Source of the DNA: Coleofasciculus chthonoplastes F2-STO-03
GTDB lineage: Bacteria; Cyanobacteriota; Cyanobacteriia; Cyanobacteriales; Coleofasciculaceae
Direction of reading: 5' to 3'
DNA: 42,414 bases
NCBI GenBank assembly: GCA_040222015.1
Contig: JAVJWO010000033.1
Span: 1 to 42,414, forward strand
Shown here piece after piece: positions 9,410 through 34,683 of this stretch. Position numbers and translations under genes: made by a program. Under the pieces are notes generated by a model. That model saw nothing but the letters and a program-made list of their open reading frames with translations. It was not told the DNA's origin and made no database searches. How positions within the stretch are numbered: position 1 is the stretch's first letter; every line of letters begins with the position of its first letter.

Positions 9410-9863
9410 GGTAATTATCTAATTTTGACATTCTGCATTAATTCTACCTATACTATAAGGAATACTGCATAGATACCCGTAATTATAACATGGAATTTAG
9501 TAGTTTTAAGATGAAATTAAGCAAAAAAGAGATGAGTTATATGAAAAAGACAAAGACATTAATAAATTGCCAAGTTATTTACAAAATTTAGAAGTCATAA
9601 GTGTAATACAGTTAGTCGTGTCTTCAGCTAAATCAGGATTAATTTCTTAGCGGTTCGTGTAAGAGTTAGGTTAACGACGCATAAACTTGAATCAGTACCA
9701 AGGAAGGTTGACAAAGCGGTAACGATCGCCTTTCACAAGGTTTATAGGTATTTCTACTCAACGCCTATAAGGATTTCTGATAAAGCCCCTGGGGTTGATC
9801 GTGTAAAAATGAAGAAACTATAAATCGTTTTAATAAACGTTGCTGATACAGGAGTCAACATCA

Positions 9864-11582
9864 ATGGTAGTACTCACCGATCGCACCCAGAAGCGCTTAA
9901 CTATGCAGACGGGGGAAATCGCGCCAGATACAACGGCTATCCGTTCCTTAGACTGGGATCGTGATCGCTTCGATATTGAGTTTGGGCTGCAAAACGGCAC
10001 CACCTATAACTCGTTCCTGATTCGGGGTGAGAAAATTGCCCTGGTGGATACCTCCCATGAAAAGTTTCGTGAACGTTACTTAGATACGCTTAAGGGGTTG
10101 ATTAAACCCAGCCAGATTGATTATCTGATTATTAGCCACACGGAACCCGATCATAGTGGCTTAGTCAAGGATATTGTCCAACTCGCACCAGAGATTACCG
10201 TCGTCGGGTCAAAAGTGGCGATTCAATTCCTGGAAGACTTGGTGCATCACCCCTTCAAACGGCAAATCGTGAAAAATGGTGACCAACTGGATTTAGGCAA
10301 AGGGCATGTGTTGGAATTTGTCAATGCCCCCAACCTCCATTGGCCCGATACTATCTTTAGCTACGATGCCGGAACCCAAGTGATGTTTACCTGTGATGCC
10401 TTTGGTATGCATTACTGTTCTGATAGCACCTACGACGAAGACATGAGTGCCATAGAAGCCGACTTCCGCTTCTACTACGACTGCTTAATGGCACCCAATG
10501 CCCGTTCCGTTCTCTCCGCCCTGAAACGGATGGATAAACTGGGAGACATCACCACCGTCGCCACGGGTCATGGTCCCCTATTATTGCATCATGTCGGCGA
10601 ATGGGTAGATCGGTATCGGCGCTGGAGTAAAGCCCAGGCAAAAGCCGAAACCTCCGTGGTTGTGTTTTACGTATCTGATTACGGCTATAGCGATCGCCTT
10701 TCCCAAGCCATTGCCCGAGGAATTACCAAAACTGGGGTGGGCGTGGAAATGATGGACTTAAAATCGGCTGATCCACAGGAAGTCCAGGAAACCGTCAGTC
10801 GCGCCGGGGGAATTGCGATCGCGATGCCTCCCGCCTCGAATAAAGCCGCCACCGCCGCTGTGAGTACCATCCTCGCTGCTGTGAAATCCAAGCAAGTCGT
10901 GGGTATCTTTGAATCCTATGGCGGAGATGACGAACCCATTGACCCCCTACTGAGTCAATTCCGCAACCTCGGACTCAAAGAAGGATTTGCCGCGATTCGG
11001 GTCAAAGAAACCCCAACCGAAGCCATCTATCAACTCTGCGAAGAAGCCGGAACCGATATGGGGCAACTCCTCACCCGCGATCGCAATATCAAGCAACGGA
11101 AATCTATCGATAATGACCTAGAAAAAGCCCTAGGACGGATCAGCGGCGGACTTTATATTATTACCGCCCAAAAAGGTGACATTAAGAGTGCCATGTTAGC
11201 CTCCTGGGTATCCCAAGCCAGCTTCAAACCCCTCGGCTTAACCATCGCCGTCGCTAAAGATCGGGCGATTGAGTCTTTGATGCAAGTTAGCGATCGCTTT
11301 GTGCTGAATATTCTACAAGAGGGCAATTATCAGGCATTAATGAAGCACTTCCTCAAGCGTTTTCCCCCTGGTGCCGATCGGTTTGAAGGAGTGAACACGC
11401 AAACAGCGACGAATGGATCACCGATTCTTACCGATGCGTTAGCTTATGTGGAATGTAAGGTGGAAAGTCGGATGGAGTTGAGTGACCATTGGATTGTCTA
11501 CGCCTCTGTTGACGCTGGACGAGTGTCTAAGGCGGATGCGTTGACGGCGGTTCATCATCGCAAAGTGGGGAATTACTATTAA
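9864..11582 (+). CDS. flv3: Flavodiiron protein Flv3
   Basis: IRSLDWDRDRFDIEFGLQNGTTYN, canonical HTEPDH diiron motif, flavodoxin and flavin-reductase domains. ATG 9864 follows an AGGAG. Confidence 0.9.
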   Translation: MVVLTDRTQKRLTMQTGEIAPDTTAIRSLDWDRDRFDIEFGLQNGTTYNSFLIRGEKIALVDTSHEKFRERYLDTLKGLIKPSQIDYLIISHTEPDHSGLVKDIVQLAPEITVVGSKVAIQFLEDLVHHPFKRQIVKNGDQLDLGKGHVLEFVNAPNLHWPDTIFSYDAGTQVMFTCDAFGMHYCSDSTYDEDMSAIEADFRFYYDCLMAPNARSVLSALKRMDKLGDITTVATGHGPLLLHHVGEWVDRYRRWSKAQAKAETSVVVFYVSDYGYSDRLSQAIARGITKTGVGVEMMDLKSADPQEVQETVSRAGGIAIAMPPASNKAATAAVSTILAAVKSKQVVGIFESYGGDDEPIDPLLSQFRNLGLKEGFAAIRVKETPTEAIYQLCEEAGTDMGQLLTRDRNIKQRKSIDNDLEKALGRISGGLYIITAQKGDIKSAMLASWVSQASFKPLGLTIAVAKDRAIESLMQVSDRFVLNILQEGNYQALMKHFLKRFPPGADRFEGVNTQTATNGSPILTDALAYVECKVESRMELSDHWIVYASVDAGRVSKADALTAVHHRKVGNYY

Positions 11583-11624
11583 AACGCAGAGGTTCGCAGA
11601 GGTCAACGCAGAGGTTCGCAGAGG
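11583..11624 (+). repeat. Array of 4 x CGCAGAGG (left flank of GxxExxY gene)
   Basis: Units start at 11585, 11595, 11607 and 11617. Confidence 0.95.
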
Positions 11625-12002
11625 ATGACTGAGAATGAGGTGTCGGGAAAAGTGATTGGGTTGGCGATGAAGGTACACACGGCGTTGGGACCGGGTTTAT
11701 TGGAGTCAGCTTATGAAGCCTGTTTGAGGTATGAACTGAATAAGGCTGGTTTAAACTTTGAACCCCAGAAACCATTACCGTTAGTCTATGAAGAGATTCG
11801 TCTTGAATGTGGATATCGAGTTGATCTCCTCGTCGAAAACAAAGTCATGGTTGAACTCAAAGCCGTTGACGCCCTGCATCCCATCCACACCGCCCAACTC
11901 CTAACCTACCTCAAACTCTCCCACCATAAACTCGGACTCCTGATCAACTTCAACGTCATCCATCTCAAAGACGGCATCAAACGAGTCGTCAATCACCTTT
12001 AA
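11625..12002 (+). CDS. GxxExxY protein (PD-(D/E)XK nuclease superfamily)
   Basis: GPGLLESAYE, RVDLLVENKVMVELK, QLLTY, GLLINFN. Confidence 0.95.
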   Translation: MTENEVSGKVIGLAMKVHTALGPGLLESAYEACLRYELNKAGLNFEPQKPLPLVYEEIRLECGYRVDLLVENKVMVELKAVDALHPIHTAQLLTYLKLSHHKLGLLINFNVIHLKDGIKRVVNHL

Positions 12003-12005
12003 CCC

Positions 12006-12047
12006 CCTCTGCGAACCTCTGCGCTTCCCTCTGCGCCCCTCTGCGTT
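12006..12047 (-). repeat. Array of 4 x CGCAGAGG, inverted (right flank of GxxExxY gene)
   Basis: CCTCTGCG at 12006, 12016, 12028 and 12038. Confidence 0.95.
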
Positions 12048-12076
12048 AAAAAAAACCATTCACCCCAAACTAAACC

Positions 12077-13801
12077 ATGAACCCTCCTACCCCTCGCGAC
12101 GTTCAAGTCCTCCCCATCGCCACCGACACCACCGTTCTCCGTTCCCGCACTTGGGATAGACTCAAATTTGAAATCGAATATGCCCTGCAACGCGGCACCA
12201 CCGCCAATTCCTATCTGATTCAAGCGGATAAAATCGCCCTGATTGATCCTCCGGGCGAATCGTTCACCGAAATCTTTTTAACCGAACTGCAACGCCGGAT
12301 TGACCCCAAACAAATCGATTATGTGATACTCGGTCACGTTAATCCCAACCGAGGCGTTACTCTAAAAGCCTTACTCAAACTCGCCCCTCAGATACAATTT
12401 GTCTGTTCCAATCCTGGTGCGATCGCGCTGCGTGGTATCTTAGATGCACCGGATTTAAAAGTAACGGTGGCGCGGGGGGATGAAACCCTGGATTTAGGCA
12501 AGGGTCATCATCTGCAATTTATCCCCACCCCTAATCCCCGTTGGCCCGACGCCCTTTGTACCTACGACCCCCACACTGAAGTTCTATTTACCGATAAGTT
12601 ATTTGGTGCCCATCTGTGTGGTGACCAAGTAATGGATGAAGGCTGGACAACAATTAGCGAACACCGCCGCTATTATTTCGATTGCGTCATGGCACCCCAT
12701 GCGCGACAGGTGGAAAAGGCGCTGGATAAGGTTGAGGAGGTGCAAGCAAGGCTTTATGCTACAGGTCATGGGCAATTGGTACGCTATAGCTTAATTCCCC
12801 TGACCCAATCCTATCGCCAGTGGTGTGAACGTCAAAAAACACAAGACATCACCGTCGCCCTGCTGTATGCTTCTGCTTATGGGAATACCGGTACCGTTGC
12901 CCAGGCGATCGCACGGGGGATTACTAAGGCTGGAGTTGGTGTAGAATCTATTAACTGCGAAATCGCTGACCCGGAGGAGATTCGCGCTGCTGTGGAAAAG
13001 GCGGAGGGGTTTGTTATGGGTTCTCCGACGTTAGGGGGTCATGCACCCACCCAGATTCAAACGGCTTTGGGGATTGTTTTATCCACGGCGACGAAAACTA
13101 AACTGGCGGGGGTTTTTGGGTCTTTTGGCTGGAGTGGTGAAGCGATTGACTTGATTGAAAATAAGTTTAAGGATGCAGGATATAAGTTTGGCTTTGAGAC
13201 GATTCGGGTTAAGTTTAAGCCCACGGAAACCACACTAAAATACGCCGAAGAAGCGGGAACGGATTTTGCCCAAGCCCTGAAGAAAGCCAAGAAATCCCGC
13301 ACATCCCGCCAACCCGTCAGTGATGCCCAAGTTGCCCGAACTGAACAGGCTGTGGGGCGGTTAATTGGGTCACTTTGTATTATTACGACGAAGCAGGGAG
13401 AACTTACGGGGGCGATGTTGGCAGATTGGATTTCCCAAGCCACGTTTAATCCACCGGGGTTAACGATTGCGGTGGCGAAAGACCGGGCGATTGAGTCGTT
13501 AATGTATCAGGGTGAGCAATTTGTGGTGAATATTTTAGAGGAAGGGAAGCATTTGGGGTTAATGAAGCATTTCCTCAAACCCTTTGCCCCAGGGGAAGAC
13601 CGATTTGCGGGGGTGGCGACGGAGGATGGTGACAATGGTTGTCCGATTCTTAGCGATGCTTTGGCGTATGTGGAATGTACGGTGGATAATCGGATGGAAT
13701 GTGGGGATCATTGGTTGATTTATGGGGTGGTGACGAATGGCAAGGTGTTATCGGAGGGGGTAACGGCGGTGCATCATCGTAAGTCGGGGACACATTATTA
13801 G
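12077..13801 (+). CDS. flv1: Flavodiiron protein Flv1
   Basis: LRSRTWDRLKFEIEY, non-canonical HVNPNR metal motif, same three-domain architecture as Flv3. Confidence 0.9.
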   Translation: MNPPTPRDVQVLPIATDTTVLRSRTWDRLKFEIEYALQRGTTANSYLIQADKIALIDPPGESFTEIFLTELQRRIDPKQIDYVILGHVNPNRGVTLKALLKLAPQIQFVCSNPGAIALRGILDAPDLKVTVARGDETLDLGKGHHLQFIPTPNPRWPDALCTYDPHTEVLFTDKLFGAHLCGDQVMDEGWTTISEHRRYYFDCVMAPHARQVEKALDKVEEVQARLYATGHGQLVRYSLIPLTQSYRQWCERQKTQDITVALLYASAYGNTGTVAQAIARGITKAGVGVESINCEIADPEEIRAAVEKAEGFVMGSPTLGGHAPTQIQTALGIVLSTATKTKLAGVFGSFGWSGEAIDLIENKFKDAGYKFGFETIRVKFKPTETTLKYAEEAGTDFAQALKKAKKSRTSRQPVSDAQVARTEQAVGRLIGSLCIITTKQGELTGAMLADWISQATFNPPGLTIAVAKDRAIESLMYQGEQFVVNILEEGKHLGLMKHFLKPFAPGEDRFAGVATEDGDNGCPILSDALAYVECTVDNRMECGDHWLIYGVVTNGKVLSEGVTAVHHRKSGTHY

Positions 13802-13833
13802 TATAAGGTGATGGGGGGATGGGGTATTTTTTT

Positions 13834-13878
13834 AACGCTCCAGGTAGCAGAGGGAAAGCGCAGAGGAACGCAGAGGGG
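13834..13878 (+). repeat. Solo CGCAGAGG array, first units degenerate
   Basis: TTTTTTTAACGCTCCAGGTAGCAGAGGGAAAGCGCAGAGGAACGCAGAGGGG. Confidence 0.85.
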
Positions 13879-13910
13879 TTAGCAGTTGGGATGCAAGTTT
13901 TATCAGTATG

Positions 13911-14267: not shown

Positions 14268-16157
14268 ATGGAATTGATTACCGGGTTAGGAGGGTTTGTT
14301 TTTGTCGCCGCCCTATCGGGGATTATTGGGAATAAGGCGGATTTGGGGTTGGATACTTTAATCAGGATGATGAATCGCCTGAAACCTGGGGAGACGCCGA
14401 CGATACAAACGGCGGTGGGGCGGGCGTTTTTGTTGGCGCAGCAAAGTTTGGTGGAAGAGTGTCTGCGTGAATTGATTGGTGAGAATAAAAGTATTTGGGA
14501 TTGTCCACCTCAGTACAAAAATGAGGTAAGTTGGCTAGACCACAAGTTAAAACGGCTAAAGGCGGATTTACAGAAGCTGGAATTGGGGGAATTTGGCGAA
14601 TTAGCGGTGACACCTGTGGCTGATATTGACTCCCTGTTAACCCCAGATGGGGCGTTGGTTGGGGATACGGTTCAGGTGGTACGTCAGCAACTTAAGGTAA
14701 TTTTACAGCAGGAGAATGCGATCGCACTTTACCAAACCAAGGCTGTAACTCCCCAAGTGGGCTTGTTTGAACGGATGTGTGCCTGTTTTGCAGTGGAGAT
14801 GCAGACGAATCCGGTACTGCGGGAGATGATTCAGGGACAATTGCTAACTCAGATTAATGCTAATTTGAAAACGCAGCAGGTGACGGTAAAGGATTTAACT
14901 CACTCCTTGCAGAATTTGGCGCGGGATGTGGTGCGCGATATGGGAGATATTAAGGAGTCTTTGGAACGCCTCAAGCATCAAATGGCGGCTTTATCAGTAC
15001 GTCAACTACCTGTTCCCGATGATTTCCGGTGGATTGTTGAGGATAAGACGAAGGGATTTGTCGGGCGGGAATTTGTCTTTGATGCCATTGAGGAATTTTT
15101 CCAGCAGCAGCGTAAAGGCTACTTTATTATCGAAGCCGAACCGGGGATGGGCAAAAGTTCTATCCTGGCAGAATTTGTGCGGCGGAATGATTGCATTGTC
15201 TATTTCAACCAGCGCAATGAAGGGATAACCAGCGCTGAACAATTCCTCCGGAGTGTCTGTATCCAGCTTATTCAAGATTACGAACTATCTCACTCTCAAG
15301 ACATCCAACCCGAAAATACGTGTAATAGTAATTTTTTCAAAAACCTACTCACTGAAGCGACAGGGAAACTGAAGTCAAATGAACGATTGGTCATTGCCGT
15401 TGATGCTTTGGATGAAGTTGACTTGAGTAGCCAGAGTCGGGGTGCTAACGTCCTTTACCTACCTGAAGATTTGCCCGATAATGTCTATTTAATTGTCACA
15501 AAACGACCGTTACCACCTGACCAACTACCGTTGCGGGTGAATAATAAGCGGCTTTTTGACGTGATGCAGTATCCGGCAAGAAACCAAGAAGACGTAGAAG
15601 CTTATATTCGACAGCGCATCAATGGGGTAGGGGCTTCGGTATCCGTATCTATTCGGCAGTGGATTCAAAGTCGGGGTGCTAATGAAGAGGAATTTGTCTC
15701 GACATTGGTTGAAAAGAGCGAAGGAAACTTCATGTATCTGCGCTATGTATTGGATGACATTGAAAAAGGCGCATATCCAAAATTAGAGATTCGGGGTTTA
15801 CCCAGTGGTTTGCAAGACTACTATTACAAACACTGGGAACGCATGGGCATGAATGACAAGCCCCTGTTTAAAATCAAAATTGTCTATATCCTGTCAGAAT
15901 CTCCTATACCTATCCCCTTTGAGGAAATTGTGGCAATTCTCGACGCTGATGGTGAGGAAGAAAAAGGACTACCGGTGAGGGTGCAAGCGGTACTTGATGA
16001 ATGGATACAGTTTTTACGGGAAGAGGAAAAGTACCGACAAACATTCTATAGCCTGTATCATAGCAGCTTCCGGGATTTTCTGCGGAATGAGAAGACAGTG
16101 AAGCGTGCGGGGATAACGCTTCAGGGAATTATTGAAATGATGGTAAATAGTAGGTAG
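14268..16157 (+). CDS. NACHT/STAND-type P-loop NTPase with helical N-terminal domain
   Basis: FVGRE, Walker A AEPGMGKSS, Walker B IAVDALDE, SEGNFMYL, LP.GL..YY, YHSSFRDFL. Confidence 0.85.
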   Translation: MELITGLGGFVFVAALSGIIGNKADLGLDTLIRMMNRLKPGETPTIQTAVGRAFLLAQQSLVEECLRELIGENKSIWDCPPQYKNEVSWLDHKLKRLKADLQKLELGEFGELAVTPVADIDSLLTPDGALVGDTVQVVRQQLKVILQQENAIALYQTKAVTPQVGLFERMCACFAVEMQTNPVLREMIQGQLLTQINANLKTQQVTVKDLTHSLQNLARDVVRDMGDIKESLERLKHQMAALSVRQLPVPDDFRWIVEDKTKGFVGREFVFDAIEEFFQQQRKGYFIIEAEPGMGKSSILAEFVRRNDCIVYFNQRNEGITSAEQFLRSVCIQLIQDYELSHSQDIQPENTCNSNFFKNLLTEATGKLKSNERLVIAVDALDEVDLSSQSRGANVLYLPEDLPDNVYLIVTKRPLPPDQLPLRVNNKRLFDVMQYPARNQEDVEAYIRQRINGVGASVSVSIRQWIQSRGANEEEFVSTLVEKSEGNFMYLRYVLDDIEKGAYPKLEIRGLPSGLQDYYYKHWERMGMNDKPLFKIKIVYILSESPIPIPFEEIVAILDADGEEEKGLPVRVQAVLDEWIQFLREEEKYRQTFYSLYHSSFRDFLRNEKTVKRAGITLQGIIEMMVNSR

Positions 16158-16173
16158 CGAGGGGCGGTTGGTC

Positions 16174-18315
16174 ATGGGGAAGTTAGCTGAATCGTTAAAC
16201 CGCCTACCCGCAGGCAGTCGGCTGTACAGGTTACAGACGCGACCACAATTGCTGGCGCAGTCTGGTCAGGCTCACCGTTTGTTTGAGTTACTGACTGACT
16301 TTGATTTCATTGAAGCTAAGGTTTCTCATCCTGAGATCAAGTTACAAGAGCTAATTGAGGATTATGACCTAGCTTTTGAGCCTAAAGTCCTGATTTCTGG
16401 GGAGAAGGCGGAAATTCCCAGACTGATTCAAGGGGCAATTCGGCTGTCAGCGCACGTTCTGGATAAAGACAAAACGCAACTGGCTGGGCAATTGATGGGG
16501 CGGTTGATGGTGTTTGATATGCCAGAAATTCGGGCGATACTGGAACAAGTGCAGCCAATAGAACCCTGGCTGCGTCCTATGACTCCTAGCTTACACCCTC
16601 CTGGCAAGCTGTTGCTACGCACTTTTGAAGGTCACAGGAGTTCAATAAGTTCTATTGTCGTCACACCCGATGGCAAACAATTAATTTCTGGCTCACTTGA
16701 TCACAGTATTAGAATCTGGAATTTTCAAACAGGAGAGCAACTACTAACTTTGACAGGTCATAGCGAATGGGTAAATGCCATAGCACTGACACCAGATAGT
16801 AAGCGAGTAATTTCTGGTTCATCAGATAAAACAATCAAAGTTTGGGATGTCAATACAGGAAGAGAAATTTTGACTCTTGAAGGTCATACAGATGCTGTCG
16901 TATCTGTCGCAGTTACGCCAGATGGCAAGCGGTTAATTTCTGGTTCATGGGATAAGACTATTAAACTATGGGATTTAGAAAACGGAAAAAATATAAAAAC
17001 AATAAAGGCTCATACAGATAGAGTAAAAATTGTCTCTATCACTCCAGATGATAAGTTGCTAATCTCTTCTGGATTAGAGGAGCAACCTATCAAACACTTT
17101 CCTTGTGACACTATAAAAGGCTGGAATTTGGCAGATCTAACAGAAGTTTTTACGTTATGGAGTAATACGGAGTTTCTGGAAAATATAGCGATCAGCCCGG
17201 ATGGAAAATATCTAATTTCTGCTGGAATTGACACGATCATTTGGAATCTAGAAACAAGAGAACATATTTTTACTTTCTGTCCAGAAATAGAACGGGTAGG
17301 ATCATCGGTAAGTACTCTGACAGTAACCCCCGATAGTAAGTTACTAATTTCTGGCTTAGCAAACGGTGTTATCCAGATTTTAGATCTGAATACGAAAAAA
17401 GAGCTTGTCACTTGGAACGGTCATGTTGGTGCGATATTTTCTTTGGTTATGACACCAGATGGCAAACATTTGATATCTGGTTCAAGTGACCAGACGATAA
17501 AAATTTGGGATTTGGAAGCCGTTAAAGCAAAAAAAATCTTGATTCAGAATGAACGTATAGAGGCGATCAAAACCATTACAGTGACACCGGATGGTCAACG
17601 AGCAATTTCTGGTTCAGAGGATGGTTACATTAAAGTCTGGAATTTAGAAAATGGAAAAAAATTAAATACATTTACAGATGTTAATAACTTTAGAAATTCC
17701 GTACATGATTTGGTCGTCACACCAGATGGTAAGCAAGTGATTGCTGGGTTGCGTTCTGGCAACATTGAATCCTGGAATTTAAAAACAGGAAAGAACCTAA
17801 AAACCTTTAAAGGTCATACCCGTCATGTAAATGCTATAGCAGTTACACCCGATGGTAAGCAATTAATTTCAGGTTCAGCAGACATGAAAGTCAAGATTTG
17901 GAATTTAGAAACCGGAGAGGAGGCTTTTACTTTTACAGAGCATACTGACTATGTATGGCATGTGAAAGTCACACCAGATGGTAAACATATAATTTCTAGT
18001 TCGATGAATCAAACTATTTATTGGGAACTCGAAACAAAAAAAATAATTTATACCCAAAACGGTTTTGCAAACTGGAGAAAGACAATAGTAGTTGATCCAC
18101 CTAGAAAATGGGAAATATATATTGTATCTGGTACAATAAAAATATTTGATTGGGAAACTAAAAAATTGATTACTAGTTTCACTGGAGATACTTGGTTAAA
18201 TTGCTATGCTGTAGCACCAGATGGGATAACGATTTTAGCAGGGGATCAGTCCGGAATGGTACATTTTCTGCGGTTAGAAAATAGCAGCGCATTTGGTAGC
18301 GGATGTAACAGATAA
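16174..18315 (+). CDS. WD40-repeat protein with N-terminal APAF-1-like helical domain
   Basis: LTDFDFIEAK..LIEDYD..AIRLSAHVL..QLAGQL, then a dozen or more (GH)..VTPDGK..ISGS.D..IK.W[DN] repeats. Confidence 0.92.
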   Translation: MGKLAESLNRLPAGSRLYRLQTRPQLLAQSGQAHRLFELLTDFDFIEAKVSHPEIKLQELIEDYDLAFEPKVLISGEKAEIPRLIQGAIRLSAHVLDKDKTQLAGQLMGRLMVFDMPEIRAILEQVQPIEPWLRPMTPSLHPPGKLLLRTFEGHRSSISSIVVTPDGKQLISGSLDHSIRIWNFQTGEQLLTLTGHSEWVNAIALTPDSKRVISGSSDKTIKVWDVNTGREILTLEGHTDAVVSVAVTPDGKRLISGSWDKTIKLWDLENGKNIKTIKAHTDRVKIVSITPDDKLLISSGLEEQPIKHFPCDTIKGWNLADLTEVFTLWSNTEFLENIAISPDGKYLISAGIDTIIWNLETREHIFTFCPEIERVGSSVSTLTVTPDSKLLISGLANGVIQILDLNTKKELVTWNGHVGAIFSLVMTPDGKHLISGSSDQTIKIWDLEAVKAKKILIQNERIEAIKTITVTPDGQRAISGSEDGYIKVWNLENGKKLNTFTDVNNFRNSVHDLVVTPDGKQVIAGLRSGNIESWNLKTGKNLKTFKGHTRHVNAIAVTPDGKQLISGSADMKVKIWNLETGEEAFTFTEHTDYVWHVKVTPDGKHIISSSMNQTIYWELETKKIIYTQNGFANWRKTIVVDPPRKWEIYIVSGTIKIFDWETKKLITSFTGDTWLNCYAVAPDGITILAGDQSGMVHFLRLENSSAFGSGCNR

Positions 18316-31608: not shown

Positions 31609-31812
31609 CCTCACACCTCGGTTAAGATGAGTGCCACTGACTGGTATGCTGGTGGGCAATGCCCACCCTACAATATATCAACGGTTTCGACGATTTCCTA
31701 GTGCAAATTTTCAGTGCCATTCCAGTTAAGATGACAGCTTTCTCTCTAAGGTAACTTAAGAAACTCCGCTATAGTGAGTAGTTACTGGTTATTGGACAAT
31801 GAACAATCAACC

Positions 31813-34683
31813 ATGAACAACCGATTACAGTGGTGGAAAACGGGGAACCGCAAATATTTAGGTATTCTGGGGCTAATTTGGCTAGCCAGCGCGTTGTGCG
31901 ATCGCCTGTGGTTTGCGCTTGATAATTCTGTCCCTGGTTGGGATCAGGCGGATTACTTGACAGGTTCGTTAAATTATTGGCAAGCGTTGCAACATCCTGA
32001 GTGGTTCTCTGGGGAATGGTGGACGAATTTATGGCAACTTTCCTCTAAAATACCGCCTTTTACTTATATCGCTACCGCTATTATTCAACATATTGTTGGT
32101 CGGGGAACGGATCAAGCTACGCTGGTTCTTTTACTCTTTCATGCTATTCTTATCGGTTCAGTTTATGGCTTAGGTGTTCAACTTTTCAATCGTCGGGTTG
32201 GATTATGGGCGGCTGGATTAACGGTGCTTTTACCGGGACTCTATCGCTATCGTTTAGAATTCCTGCTGGATTATCCGCTGACGGCGGTTGTTACACTTAG
32301 TTTCTTCTGTCTCACGGTTTGGCGAAATCAACGGTTAACCTCGGTCATTGCTAAGTCACCATCCAATCACCAATTAGCAATAAGAAAAGAAAATAAAGCA
32401 TCATATCCTTTAATTTCTGCCTTAAAAAGGGGAACGATTCAATCCCTAGTCTGGGCAATAATTTTCGGCGTATCCCTAGGATTAGCGTTAATGGTAAAGC
32501 AAACGGCGCTATTCTTTCTATTTATACCGATTATCTGGGTTATCGCGGGGACGATTCGACGGCGAGATTGGGCAGGTTTGGTTCAGTTAATCGTGGGATT
32601 GTTGGTATCTTGGTTTATATTTTATCCCTGGTATCGCACTAACTGGCTACTCATTTTAACCTCTGGGAAACGAGCTACGTTAGATTCCGCGATCGCAGAG
32701 GGTGATCCAGCGCTGAATACGTTAGACGCTTGGCTGTATTATGGGAAGATTTTACCCTATTTGGTGTCGTGGGTTCTGTTGCTTGTCCCGATTGTGGGTT
32801 TGATTCTTTATTGGCGGAAAAAAGAGAGGGTTTGGGGTGGGGAAGGGGAGGATGTTTTTTCAACGCAGAGGGGCGCAGAGGTTAACGCAGAGGGGCGCAG
32901 AGGGTTTCAGAAAAGATATGGGTTGGGTAGGTTAGGTTGGTCTTTCGGTTGGCTTGCTGTGTTTGTGGTCGGGGGGTATTTCTTGTGTTCTCTGAATGTG
33001 AATAAGGATGCTCGTTATATTTTGCCATTGTTGCCTGTGTTTTCGTTAGTTTTAGCATCGGGTTTGGTTTTATGGCAAGGTGGTTGGGGTAAGTCTGTTC
33101 GCTGGGGTACGGTGGGGTTGGCGTCTGTGTTAATGGTGCTGAATTTGTTTCCTTTGGGCGGTGCTTTTTTAACTGAAGTTCTTGCGCCGCGTGTTCAACA
33201 TTTTCCTTATTTGGGACAACCTGTTCCTCTGGCTCAGGTGATTGATGAAATTATCCAAACTTCTCCGAATTTACAGATAACTTTAGGTGTATTACCGTCA
33301 ACTCCGGAAATTAATCAGCACAATTTAAATTATTATGGGGCGTTGCGGGATTTTCAGGTGTATGGGCGTCAGGTAGGGGTACGAGAGAAACAGATTGAAC
33401 AGGATGCGCGATCGCTCTCTTGGTTTGTGACGAAAACGGGTGATCAAGGATCTGTCCCTGAAGCGCAAGCGGCTATTGTGGAAAAGGTTGAAAAAGGGGG
33501 AGAGTTTCAACTCCAGAAGACTTGGAATTTACCTGATGGTAGTCTGCTCAAGCTTTATCACCGACATCAGCCATTTTTTGAGGTCACAACAGTCAACAGT
33601 AAACAGTCAATTGTAGGGGCGGATTTAAACCCAATTGTAGGGACAGATTTAAACCCAATTGTAGGGGCGGGTTTAGGAACTCAATTCAGATACTCACCAA
33701 TAAATGAACAACGAAACCCGCCCTCTTCACCAATAAATGAACAACAAAACCCGTCCTTATTCAACAGCCTACCGTTAAGCGTAGTCGAAGGGTTAAATAA
33801 AATTAAATTAAATCGGGTGATTGTCCCAGAGACAGCCCCTCCTGGTTTCCCTACACCTGTTACCTATGAATGGGCTGGGGATTGGCAACCGTTACAATCG
33901 GGAATTGTGTTATTAACCTGGCATTCGCTGGAAGGAGGATATCAATATCAATGGTTACACGATCATGGTATTGCCATGGGAAACTTGTTTCCGAAGTCAA
34001 CAAACAACCGTCAGCTATCAACCGTAACCAATCAATCGCCTAAATACCAGGTTATTGAACGAATGGCGATGTTACCTCCAGCAGATATCCCAGCCGGAAC
34101 GCATACATTAAAAGCCACCTATTTGAATCGAGAAACAGGGGAAACCTATCCGATATCAGTACCACCTGTGAGGATAAAGATTGCTCCAAAAGCACCTGCA
34201 ACACCTGCACCGGAATTAGACTTAATCACCCAATTTCGGACATTAGCCGCGACTTTGCCCAATGGTTCTGATTCCCTGGAGGCTATCTTTGAACAAACGG
34301 GGCGAATTAATCAGTATGACCCCATCCAAGATTATCTAGTGCAGGCAGATTTGGCGTTGACTCATCGGTTAAAGTTAGAACCAAAAAGGTTAGACTGGGC
34401 TTATGCCCTAGCGTTATCTAGGGTTTTACAAGTAGACTCTCAGAGTGCGATCGCGGCGTTAAAGCGGGTCGTCCAGCTTGATCCGCAAAATCCTTATGCT
34501 CATGCTTATCTTGCCTTCGTTTATTTATATGAATGGCGAGGTCAAGATGCCCAAAATGCGCTCAAGCCTGCCTTAAGTCTCAACCCAAATCTGCCAGAAG
34601 TTCAAGCCCTTTCTGGTGGTGCTGCCCTAATGCAAGGAAATTTAGTCAAAACCTGGTATTTTATTGAAAAATTGAGAAATTAG
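31813..34683 (+). CDS. GT39/ArnT-like phospholipid-carrier-dependent glycosyltransferase with C-terminal TPR
   Basis: WDQADY, KIPP, LDYPL, LALMVKQ, NKDARY, many TM helices and a TPR-like tail. Contains repeat-derived in-frame inserts. Confidence 0.88.
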   Translation: MNNRLQWWKTGNRKYLGILGLIWLASALCDRLWFALDNSVPGWDQADYLTGSLNYWQALQHPEWFSGEWWTNLWQLSSKIPPFTYIATAIIQHIVGRGTDQATLVLLLFHAILIGSVYGLGVQLFNRRVGLWAAGLTVLLPGLYRYRLEFLLDYPLTAVVTLSFFCLTVWRNQRLTSVIAKSPSNHQLAIRKENKASYPLISALKRGTIQSLVWAIIFGVSLGLALMVKQTALFFLFIPIIWVIAGTIRRRDWAGLVQLIVGLLVSWFIFYPWYRTNWLLILTSGKRATLDSAIAEGDPALNTLDAWLYYGKILPYLVSWVLLLVPIVGLILYWRKKERVWGGEGEDVFSTQRGAEVNAEGRRGFQKRYGLGRLGWSFGWLAVFVVGGYFLCSLNVNKDARYILPLLPVFSLVLASGLVLWQGGWGKSVRWGTVGLASVLMVLNLFPLGGAFLTEVLAPRVQHFPYLGQPVPLAQVIDEIIQTSPNLQITLGVLPSTPEINQHNLNYYGALRDFQVYGRQVGVREKQIEQDARSLSWFVTKTGDQGSVPEAQAAIVEKVEKGGEFQLQKTWNLPDGSLLKLYHRHQPFFEVTTVNSKQSIVGADLNPIVGTDLNPIVGAGLGTQFRYSPINEQRNPPSSPINEQQNPSLFNSLPLSVVEGLNKIKLNRVIVPETAPPGFPTPVTYEWAGDWQPLQSGIVLLTWHSLEGGYQYQWLHDHGIAMGNLFPKSTNNRQLSTVTNQSPKYQVIERMAMLPPADIPAGTHTLKATYLNRETGETYPISVPPVRIKIAPKAPATPAPELDLITQFRTLAATLPNGSDSLEAIFEQTGRINQYDPIQDYLVQADLALTHRLKLEPKRLDWAYALALSRVLQVDSQSAIAALKRVVQLDPQNPYAHAYLAFVYLYEWRGQDAQNALKPALSLNPNLPEVQALSGGAALMQGNLVKTWYFIEKLRN
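32862..32903 (+). repeat. Solo 4 x CGCAGAGG array, in frame within the glycosyltransferase
   Basis: Units start at 32864, 32874, 32886 and 32896; translated as TQRGAEVNAEGRRG. Confidence 0.95.

Follow-up and report, generated by a model that had tools for sequence, protein, structure and literature searches.

In the genome of the mat-forming cyanobacterium Coleofasciculus chthonoplastes F2-STO-03 (GCA_040222015.1), short arrays of a direct repeat, (CGCAGAG)x3-4, are flanked on both sides by halos in which the array strand is enriched in G and, to a lesser degree, in T. The halos take their sign from the orientation of the array, fade over about a kilobase, persist in present-day substitutions and leave the totals of change conserved: the bias is a redistribution of changes between strands and not hypermutation. 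The window is the whole stretch of DNA in which the arrays were noticed (contig JAVJWO010000033.1, positions 1-42,414 of the forward strand, 42,414 nt), and 62 oriented arrays were analysed genome-wide. This genome is referred to as G000, and other G-numbers denote comparison genomes.

Arrays and skew in the analysed window

The arrays occur as the arms of a cassette around a GxxExxY gene and as gene-less copies elsewhere in the genome; besides the cassette, four pairs of neighbouring arrays within 6 kb face inwards. Upstream of the cassette lies a gene (9840..11582, + strand, ORF taken from the first TTG) whose product carries Pfam ODP/beta-lactamase, flavodoxin and flavin reductase domains; the name flv3 is a label of the first-pass annotation, and the family call made here by Pfam is flavodiiron protein. 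The left arm (11583..11624, +) has four CGCAGAG units directed towards the GxxExxY gene; it fills the gap from the flv3 stop to the ATG of that gene and is also found in genus relatives and in other genera. The GxxExxY/PDDEXK_3 nuclease-fold gene (11625..12002, +, 125 aa; PF13366, TIGR04256) is followed by the right arm (12004..12054, -), a T-tract and four units again pointing into the gene; the two arms pair with each other in the fold predicted for 11575-12060 (z = -5.8). A second flavodiiron gene, flv1 of the same annotation (12077..13801, +), was assigned by Pfam, orthologue profiles and a PDB match, the best being 6h0c, 'diflavin flavoprotein A 3' (E 1.6e-183). Downstream of it stands a gene-less array (13827..13876, +) whose first two units are degenerate (CGCTCCAG and AGCAGAG); this array is present in G001 and G008 and absent from the same place in G002 and G005. 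Another gene-less array (32855..32903, +), with a two-sided G-rich halo, is embedded in frame in the coding sequence of a gene for a membrane glycosyltransferase-like protein (31774-34683).

The GxxExxY gene gave a single match in G000, the only copy found in the genome, and its product is a family member by both curated cut-offs (TIGR04256, 154 vs 35 bits; PF13366, 149 vs 22 bits). D67, E77 and K79 are invariant in 35 homologues, and Q91 and Y95 are conserved in at least 90% of them; these residues are presumably the PD-(D/E)XK motif, as known from the superfamily. The structure model (pLDDT 94.8) is nearest in Foldseek to Cas4, lambda exonuclease and AdnA, all weak matches with E above 0.001, and nearly all of its top fold matches are restriction-endonuclease-like (best Z 7.9, also weak). 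The protein thus has a modelled PD-(D/E)XK fold with predicted catalytic residues and is a predicted nuclease. The function of the family is given as 'Unknown' in the relevant passage of PMC3424549, and a literature search found neither repeat arms nor a skew halo described with it. For the array/GxxExxY system, searches returned no Rfam match, no meaningful PDB sequence match, no plasmid match and, in the Atlas, GxxExxY clusters only; promoter or terminator patterns were not in excess at the arrays.

Skew in the window follows the arrays. The G-rich halo of the left arm (approximately 11350..11800, +; third-position G-C in 150-bp steps +8/24, +8/18, +14/24) takes in the last ~250 bp of flv3 on the skew track, and the halo of the right arm (approximately 11801..12400, -; -22/28, -15/15, -18/28, -12/24) is C-rich on the plus strand and G-rich on the array strand. 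The flv1 gene has a C-rich start beside the minus array and a G-rich 3' part up to the downstream plus array (approximately 13000..13830, +; +15/25, +5/25, +8/24, +17/29, +20/26, +9/9). The first-pass annotation had counted by hand the third codon positions that are G or T in six blocks of 40 codons, and all six counts were reproduced exactly. Against the 5,430 ORFs of at least 100 codons in the genome, the last 40 sense codons of flv3 (29/40, or 28 with the stop included) fall in a tail of 6.0%, the first 40 codons of GxxExxY (30/40) in 0.9%, its last 40 (5/40) in 0.02%, the first 40 of flv1 (13/40) in 2.9% and its last 40 (35/40) in 0.2%; the 40 codons from 32911 (33/40) lie in a tail of 0.4% of 48,078 windows. 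The flip of skew within GxxExxY is real, its third positions turning from G-rich to C-rich mid-gene, and no other of the 5,430 ORFs has at least 30 in its first 40 codons and at most 5 in its last 40. The genome is, however, over-dispersed (300-bp third-position GC-skew sd 0.275 vs 0.155 binomial), and single hand counts are therefore weaker than they appear. Because the flv1 start is also C-rich in three orthologues with no upstream array (L017, L018, L020), the count for its first 40 codons is partly positional or ancestral. The caveat of the same annotation that skewed patches occur away from arrays also holds: flv3 is C-rich at 10901-11200, with no array nearby.

The genome-wide halo and its substitutions

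Averaging over all 62 oriented arrays, the check proposed at the outset, left the orientation-dependent skew in place. On the array strand, GC skew at four-fold sites lies between +0.7 and +0.85 at the array itself, and on either flank it takes 0.6-1.5 kb to fade, whichever of the four gene orientations applies. The profile peaks at the array at all sites, at third positions and at four-fold sites, and the bias is chiefly one of G over C, with a smaller contribution of T over A (four-fold composition on the array strand: G 0.41-0.49, T 0.25-0.32, A 0.17-0.18, C 0.09). Array by array, the oriented skew is positive in 56, negative in 4 and zero in 2, and the pooled value within 300 bp (+0.52) exceeds the maximum of 20,000 orientation shuffles (0.34). 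At 15-100 bp from the arrays the skew is +0.60 to +0.82 with equal sign on both sides in all four gene configurations, compared with +0.17 at stop codons overall and an absolute value of no more than about 0.28 at other repeats. The concordance of the four orientation classes upholds the original claim that the skew is tied to array orientation and not to transcription. The proposed centring on the arrays is likewise borne out by two-sided skew at array junctions, rare at control junctions: skew of at least +0.4 on both sides was found at 20/41 arrays vs 41/5,238 oriented control junctions, and two-sided skew across gene junctions at 17/45 with an array vs 81/4,697 without one. The word CGCAGAGG is the top-ranked 8-mer for skew effect (0.39 vs 0.19 for the best unrelated word), and its 105 lone copies show a skew of merely +0.09/+0.08. 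As had been suggested, the halo reaches into host genes, mostly single-copy DNA, and includes codon positions 1 and 2 (+0.14 and +0.26, weaker than the third). Genes in general start slightly C-rich (-0.10) and end G-rich (+0.21), a trend that the GxxExxY gene opposes.

The polarisation of substitutions against relatives demonstrated that the bias is still being written in terminal lineages of the genus. Sites needed at least three relatives and a clear majority to be used; arrays with an oppositely oriented neighbour within 0.7-1.3 kb were left out, as were singletons of G008 itself, the latter being retained in the difference-in-differences test. The asymmetry of derived changes declines with distance from the array (2.61, 2.22, 1.78, 1.21 and 1.03, reaching 1.0 beyond 1 kb) and is 2.13 upstream and 2.48 downstream. 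Since an asymmetry of 2.2-2.6 matches the 2.3-2.6-fold shift of two-fold sites, the present-day bias suffices to hold the skew. In all four complementary pairs one class rises about 1.4-fold near arrays and its complement falls to 0.6-0.8-fold, with the following pair sums per 1000 near and far from arrays: C>T+G>A 62/55, A>G+T>C 25/23, T>G+A>C 11/11 and C>G+G>C 12/12. Derived changes amount to 21.7 per 1000 near arrays vs 31.9 far, and four-fold divergence to 0.14 within 100 bp vs 0.19-0.20 farther away. No neighbour context, CpG-like included, was seen among the substitutions near arrays. One context tested was T>G after GGG runs (bioRxiv 2022.10.28.514265), which was not enriched (5/463 near arrays vs 8/484 far).

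Frame-broken or partial homologues were dropped, 55/73 loci being scored in one survey and 38 in another. The expectation that array-free orthologues would be free of the skew stood in part: the skew is mostly absent from them at the in-gene array, but the G-rich end of flv1 is kept in G002 and G005. The in-gene array, which represents one insertion event, is present in 9/9 genus genomes and in 0/13 orthologues from other genera; all nine carriers are skewed on both sides, the 13 non-carriers average +0.02/+0.14, and G037 is skewed there without an array. At 13 sites where the array is missing in G000 and present in at least two relatives, the excess bias of G000 is lower, with difference-in-differences ratios of 0.41, 0.43 and 0.56 (intervals 0.20-0.80, 0.22-0.89 and 0.31-1.00), at sites that are more divergent overall and where some changes are possibly mis-polarised. 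Raw pairwise differences at empty sites are balanced (437 vs 412). G000 retains halos at sites where it lacks the array, several of them compatible with array loss from G000, given that two to five relatives retain the array.

Array age was rejected as a predictor of the halo: no gradient was found, halo strength being unrelated to the number of genomes sharing the array (rho 0.00, 87 sites), although sharing is a poor proxy for age because clusters split and absence is checkable in G000 only. In one test the halo was weaker (0.20) at one-relative sites, a difference that the later sharing test did not reproduce. Between orthologous arrays the cores are fixed and the inter-unit spacers switch as blocks, as is expected of sites rewritten often. 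The halo is weak or mixed in G018, G019 and G024 and nearly absent in G039, which has arrays and a GxxExxY gene. Lineage asymmetry followed no pattern with GxxExxY copy number, within wide intervals: G000, one copy, 5.9; G005, two copies, 1.13; G007, a frameshifted copy, 0.96; and G004, which has a halo and in whose 620-contig assembly the gene was not found, 2.56.

Strand choice at the arrays and competing explanations

The explanation tentatively preferred, which we regard as possible and somewhat short of probable, is that the arrays are oriented cis-sites that would decide which strand is kept and which is replaced in repair or conversion, over several hundred bases on each side. Elsewhere in the genome both strands would take either role about equally and the skew would average out; at an array the roles would be polarised, such that, on the array strand, the fixation rate of changes towards G (and T) would be about 1.4-fold its usual level and that of the reverse changes 0.6-0.8-fold, with no rise in the total. 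The inferred route would be that the array is nicked or resected on one particular strand, after which one strand is resynthesised or gene conversion takes place between copies of the chromosome. That the arrays cause the halo is supported, not proven, by their position at patch centres, by the orthologues without the in-gene array being mostly without a halo, and by the weaker bias where G000 lacks an array. Within the same frame, the GxxExxY protein might make the nick in trans from its single gene, which is speculative and on the unlikely side. Broader still, and to be judged unlikely, is the idea that GxxExxY arrays form a cis-element class on which a minimal Cas4/RecB-like nuclease acts in trans, and that they impose on the adjacent kilobase a strand-polarised repair or conversion that rewrites host codons towards G/T without a raised mutation rate, past and present sites together explaining part of the patchy skew of cyanobacteria.

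The best surviving alternative, although rather unlikely, is that the arrays are markers, some other process making skew patches genome-wide and the arrays inserting into, or surviving in, the G-rich strand. Only 33/606 strong skew patches lie within 700 bp of an array; the remaining 573 do not, and the strongest of these sit within long genes. The array-free patches are also maintained, with a present-day asymmetry of 1.89 [1.44-2.44], in a test limited to 17-27 units because 2/5 of the array-free regions searched are poorly shared with relatives. The equal halos of single-genome (0.48) and widely shared (0.43) arrays, the halos at empty sites in G000 and the flv1 end in G002 and G005 point the same way. 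Targeting by the arrays would, however, have to be very selective, given how rare two-sided junction skew is without one; the maximum of the profile is at the array, the difference-in-differences result points to an effect of array presence, and several empty-site halos fit array loss. A search for a shared motif in the array-free patches yielded G-rich codon words only. Among the 81 array-free two-sided junctions, inspection by eye picked out a remnant of one array, one site known to be empty and REP-like elements here and there. As other organisers, HIP1 (GCGATCGC) was rejected, with an antisymmetric skew of just about +/-0.05 and patches no stronger nearby, as were REP-like palindromes and other tandem repeats, which reach about 0.28 in single bins and are mostly of gene-end-effect size.

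Arrays that set the local direction of replication, as a polar priming site or fork gate, could unmask leading/lagging asymmetry in a genome with many replication starts. This explanation is improbable. In its favour, a redistribution over all classes with conserved totals resembles replication asymmetry, skew over long ranges is low in the genome (20-kb windows, sd 0.07), and multiple origins are used by several cyanobacteria whose skew is irregular (PMC7198777). Against it, the sign of skew flips at origins and termini, whereas array flanks share one sign with similar asymmetry upstream and downstream, and a polar replication barrier is expected to produce skew mostly to one side and to extend much farther. 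Less probable again is selection for DNA or RNA structure, such as long hairpins, R-loops or protein loading, that would keep one strand rich in G and T around arrays. A fixation bias would also raise one class and lower its complement with a near-constant sum, the G-rich and C-rich halves of GxxExxY pair in the predicted cassette fold, and divergence is lowest beside arrays; yet most arrays have halos and no nearby inverted partner, and the independence from gene direction argues against an mRNA effect.

The first-pass annotation had proposed that nicked arrays expose a strand to extra C>T and A>G, by deamination or error-prone resynthesis, which would make them local mutators. The standing array-strand composition at four-fold sites does resemble that of an exposed strand, and C>T and A>G rise per base, more so in the G000 lineage (60 and 30 per 1000). 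G>A, T>C, A>C and G>C nevertheless fall, which added deamination cannot produce, the transversions T>G and C>G rise, no context is preferred and totals are not raised. In the closest public assembly, one strain and thus anecdotal, the piece 9500-12030 has 22 differences, every one of them within 9640-10775; the stretch 10776-12030, with the left arm, the gene and a portion of the right arm, has none. For fixed differences between species-level relatives the proposal is largely refuted, and it is highly improbable overall. An artefact of gene position, codon usage or ORF calls, suggested by the general trend along genes and the array-free C-rich flv1 starts, is refuted for the genome-wide effect by the concordant orientation classes, the opposing trend of GxxExxY and the presence of the effect at four-fold sites and in polarised changes.

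Comparison with known systems

Replication strand asymmetry resembles the halos in giving one strand an excess of G relative to C and of T relative to A and in redistributing classes between strands, but it acts on the scale of replichores with a sign switch, and the halo is a peak on a 1-kb scale at a dispersed repeat; no sign switch was found at the arrays. Single-strand exposure leaves signatures on the vertebrate mitochondrial heavy strand and in kataegis at resected breaks. These share with the halos one strand depleted of C and A; fixed differences among species-level relatives near arrays differ in having no added load, reduced complements, affected transversions and no context preference. 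Small dispersed repeats of cyanobacteria, reportedly treated by Elhai in 2008, are likened to the arrays as short gene-less intergenic repeats. No description of a repeat-anchored strand bias at silent sites was found in the literature covered, which took in the main GRINS account.

The REP/REPIN-RAYT system (PMC3116915) also combines many short gene-less intergenic repeats with one nuclease gene in inverted repeats. Its repeats are palindromes and its enzyme HUH, whereas each of the 62 arrays is built of direct 7-mers on one strand, the cassette arms form the only close inverted pair, and the gene between them matches PDDEXK_3 only and not a HUH tyrosine transposase. The genome's own REP-like palindromes have a weak antisymmetric skew of gene-end-effect size.

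The closest known system, as far as the main account in PMC8256042 goes, is GRINS (2021), duplicated regions longer than 500 bp with more than 80% identity and sub-kilobase GC and TA skews of the same sign. That account gives their mechanism as unknown, links them to gene conversion, mentions single-copy skewed regions and places GRINS in cyanobacteria. The array halos have in common with them the scale, the same-sign skew, the third-position maximum, the spill-over into amino acids and the switch of sign within a gene. On a separate GRINS skew criterion the counts are 42/123 halo flanks vs 45/400 random ones (means 0.23 for GC and 0.14 for TA). They differ in lying in single-copy host DNA: a copy of at least 300 bp exists for 4/123 halo flanks of ~500 bp, compared with 21/400 random and 25/362 array-free patches. 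Further, the GRINS account describes no anchor and the bias around arrays, unlike that of GRINS, was measured in polarised substitutions. No mechanism has been known for the strong local skews of bacteria (GRINS) or for the irregular skew of many cyanobacterial chromosomes, and here a defined 40-bp oriented element predicts the position and sign of a local skew whose bias is measurable in recent substitutions. Causal arrays would mean that a repeat dispersed in the genome steers the evolution of neighbouring genes, at synonymous and at some amino-acid sites, by strand bias and not by added mutations, and a large protein family with no assigned function would gain a testable substrate; if they also represent the wider class of cis-elements, they would offer a first molecular handle on GRINS-type skews.

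Skew around the oriented arrays

A recount of third codon positions that are G or T beside the oriented CGCAGAG arrays matched exactly all six hand counts of the first-pass annotation, which fall singly in the 0.02%–6% tails of genes in the genome containing the window (G000; 7.7 Mb in 219 contigs, the window being contig C33). The GxxExxY gene (11625..12002, + strand) is the sole ORF among 5,430 with at least 30/40 in its first 40 codons and at most 5/40 in its last 40. All third-position statistics are based on 6,031 ORFs (81% coverage) called by a simple longest-ORF script. G000 contains 62 arrays of 3 or 4 CGCAGAG units, usually preceded by a T-tract and AA. Read on the array strand, GC skew at four-fold sites reached +0.85 and +0.72 within 50 bp on either side, was +0.43 to +0.47 upstream and +0.31 to +0.38 downstream at 200–400 bp, and was about zero past approximately 1 kb upstream and 1.5 kb downstream. 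This halo was positive at 56/62 arrays, negative at 4 and zero at 2, and the pooled oriented skew (0.52) exceeded every one of 20,000 orientation shuffles. On either side of the arrays, sense and antisense genes alike displayed +0.60 to +0.82 at 15–100 bp, compared with +0.17 at stop codons in general. The earlier proposal that the skew follows array orientation was thus confirmed genome-wide. Among 8-mers with at least 60 copies, CGCAGAGG ranked first for skew (0.39; best unrelated word, 0.19), and lone copies of it showed just +0.09 and +0.08. The array halo is genuine and strong, holds across the genome and is still under way. The 6,037 HIP1 sites of G000 display a small antisymmetric third-position skew (about +0.05 on the upstream side and −0.05 on the downstream side, declining over 1 kb) that may reflect gene position.

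Among relatives, the halo was present at 27/30 loci in G002, 25/30 in G004, 6/6 in G030 (another family) and 5/6 in G023; in G019, G018 and G024 it was weak or mixed, and in G039 almost flat. Ten cyanobacterial GxxExxY genes have a strong internal flip from G to C, with four-fold skew of +0.62 over the first third and −0.85 over the last third. In 12 non-cyanobacterial genes whose inward-facing arms are simple, the flip is faint (+0.19, −0.14; p 0.007, overstated like all flip p-values because the genes are related), and 16 others lack it. The strong form is cyanobacterial and lineage-dependent.

Arrays as cause or marker

On balance we lean towards the arrays causing the halo, over all mechanisms. 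As had been proposed, the skew is centred on them: both sides reached at least +0.4 at 20/41 arrays against 41/5,238 oriented controls, and skew was two-sided at 17/45 junctions with an array against 81/4,697 controls. This position at patch centres counts for causation. The in-frame array at 32855–32903, inside a glycosyltransferase-like gene (31774–34683), was found in 9/9 genus genomes, each skewed by +0.41 to +0.58 on its upstream side and by +0.64 to +0.89 on its downstream side. At sites where G000 carries an array, the keto gain-to-loss ratio was 2.75 in G000 and 1.30 in relatives; at 13 sites with an array in at least two relatives but not in G000, it was 1.54 and 1.80, respectively. 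The difference-in-differences for array presence, which also speaks for causation, was 0.41 (0.20–0.80) at 300 bp and 0.56 (0.31–1.00) at 500 bp.

The alternative is that arrays merely mark skewed DNA. Only 33 of the 606 strong patches in G000 lie near arrays (32 with matching orientation), and present-day asymmetry is 1.89 (1.44–2.44) in array-free patches against 1.19 (0.82–1.58) in background. Array sharing among genomes bears no relation to halo strength, and raw pairwise counts are balanced at empty array sites. Orthologues without arrays, for which the annotation's reading implied no skew, gave a divided answer: 13 lacking the in-frame array were mostly unskewed (means +0.02 and +0.14; G037 excepted), a comparison that amounts to a single event, but the G-rich end of flv1 (12077..13801) is kept in G002 and G005, both without the downstream array, and its C-rich start also occurs in orthologues without any array. 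Array loss following halo formation might account for both of these flv1 features. If causal, arrays are one strong anchor within a wider genome-wide process.

Array-free patches outnumber array halos by more than 10:1, and an anchor for them was sought in G000 and not found. Very strong ones lie inside ordinary genes (e.g., C216:84299–85600 and C69:107780–110259) and are still maintained in relatives; in the extreme case, third-position G/C was G in 89/89 within one 400-bp window. Several top patches lie in genes that, by eye from translations, are restriction-modification-like or very long. Patches are carried on accessory DNA too: eight genus relatives lack a long match to C52:94001–107400, a stretch of 13 kb that contains seven strong patches.

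Substitution process and mechanism

Relatives' loci were aligned to G000 and third-position changes polarised by majority, with the ancestral base required in the outgroup G008, the most distant member. On the array strand, the per-base ratio (C>T + A>G)/(G>A + T>C) was 2.61 (1.33–4.69) at 12–150 bp, then 2.22, 1.78, 1.21 and finally 1.03 at 1–1.5 kb (22–26 arrays). By lineage it ranged from 5.9 in G000 down to roughly 1 in G005 and G007, the intervals being wide. In halos, two-fold sites are shifted 2.3- to 2.6-fold; together with the polarised asymmetry, this indicates that the bias acting today suffices to maintain the skew observed. The suggestion that arrays add mutations was not upheld: derived changes per 1000 were 21.7 near arrays and 31.9 far, and four-fold divergence was 0.14 near and 0.19–0.20 farther. 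Within 500 bp, with the outgroup filter off, C>T, A>G, T>G and C>G rose 1.4- to 1.5-fold, G>A, T>C, A>C and G>C fell to 0.6–0.8, and the sum of each complementary pair was nearly constant; no neighbour context was prominent within 500 bp. The process is a between-strand redistribution or a fixation bias. Selection on strand composition, which would give an identical substitution pattern, is possible. For fixed differences between these relatives, added deamination is largely ruled out by a total rate that is not raised, the fall of complementary classes and the nearly constant pair sums.

The redistribution could arise if the array determined which strand is removed and which serves as template when DNA is repaired or converted between chromosome copies. 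The tract fits such a strand-fixing site: it spans about 1 kb, has the same sign on both sides and leaves the totals conserved. Skew changes sign at origins and termini, and a fork barrier has a one-sided effect that reaches further. mutL and dnaA are both present in G000, with no bearing on the choice of mechanism. An economical guess is that the GxxExxY protein nicks or resects at the array, as the arrays are the arms of its gene and its modelled fold resembles resecting nucleases. Two genomes count against this: G039 has arrays and the gene yet little halo, and G004 has the halo although the gene was not found.

The GxxExxY cassette and known systems

The inward-pointing array pair flanks the only GxxExxY member found in G000. 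The closest named relatives of the protein are from Coleofasciculus MAGs (97–99% identity), which makes the host a mat-forming filamentous cyanobacterium. Residues D67, E77 and K79 are invariant, and the confident structure model weakly matches the folds of Cas4, lambda exonuclease, AdnA and restriction-type nucleases. The cassette lies between flv3 (9840..11582) and flv1 in several genera of the family, indicating that it is old; in one other genus a different small gene occupies the slot. Related short arrays, many of them facing inward, accompany homologues in a wide range of phyla, and their unit varies with protein clade (by eye). The gene is broken while arrays remain in G007 (frameshift near codon 104) and G024 (stops; contig C185). 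Upstream of flv1 in G002, G001 and G005, the right arm and part of its flank occur as a tandem duplication with copies about 107–113 bp apart. The closest public assembly is identical to the window over 10776–12030 (1.25 kb, left arm and gene), with 22 differences in 9640–10775 and 47 over 12018–13877; this looks like a recent recombination tract. Immediately after the flavodiiron locus comes a STAND-like pair (14268–18315), in which an AAA-ATPase (NPHP3_N-like) gene precedes a WD40-repeat gene.

Seven genus relatives contributed 235 arrays, of which 173 correspond to an array in G000; cores are fixed, and spacers switch as blocks. A variant unit, CGCTCCAG, recurs in place of CGCAGAG (window 13836–13843; C25:15716, C69:74845, C153:81102, C173:6430 and C212:5681), and at some of these sites the unit is normal in relatives, which suggests block conversion between arrays. 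In G027, from another family, the variable loop that holds the in-frame array in the glycosyltransferase-like gene contains instead a different short array of CACAGATG/CGCAGATG units, with mild skew. The window's own copy of this gene also has, in frame, a REP-like element with tandem copies of 24 bp (three) and 33 bp (two) at 33608–33757.

The full-text literature covered, thin for subscription papers and with most matches seen as listings, gave no account of repeat-anchored skew halos or GxxExxY arms. Among the phenomena described there, the nearest is GRINS (PMC8256042), from which the halos differ in lacking the duplication that serves as a criterion there.
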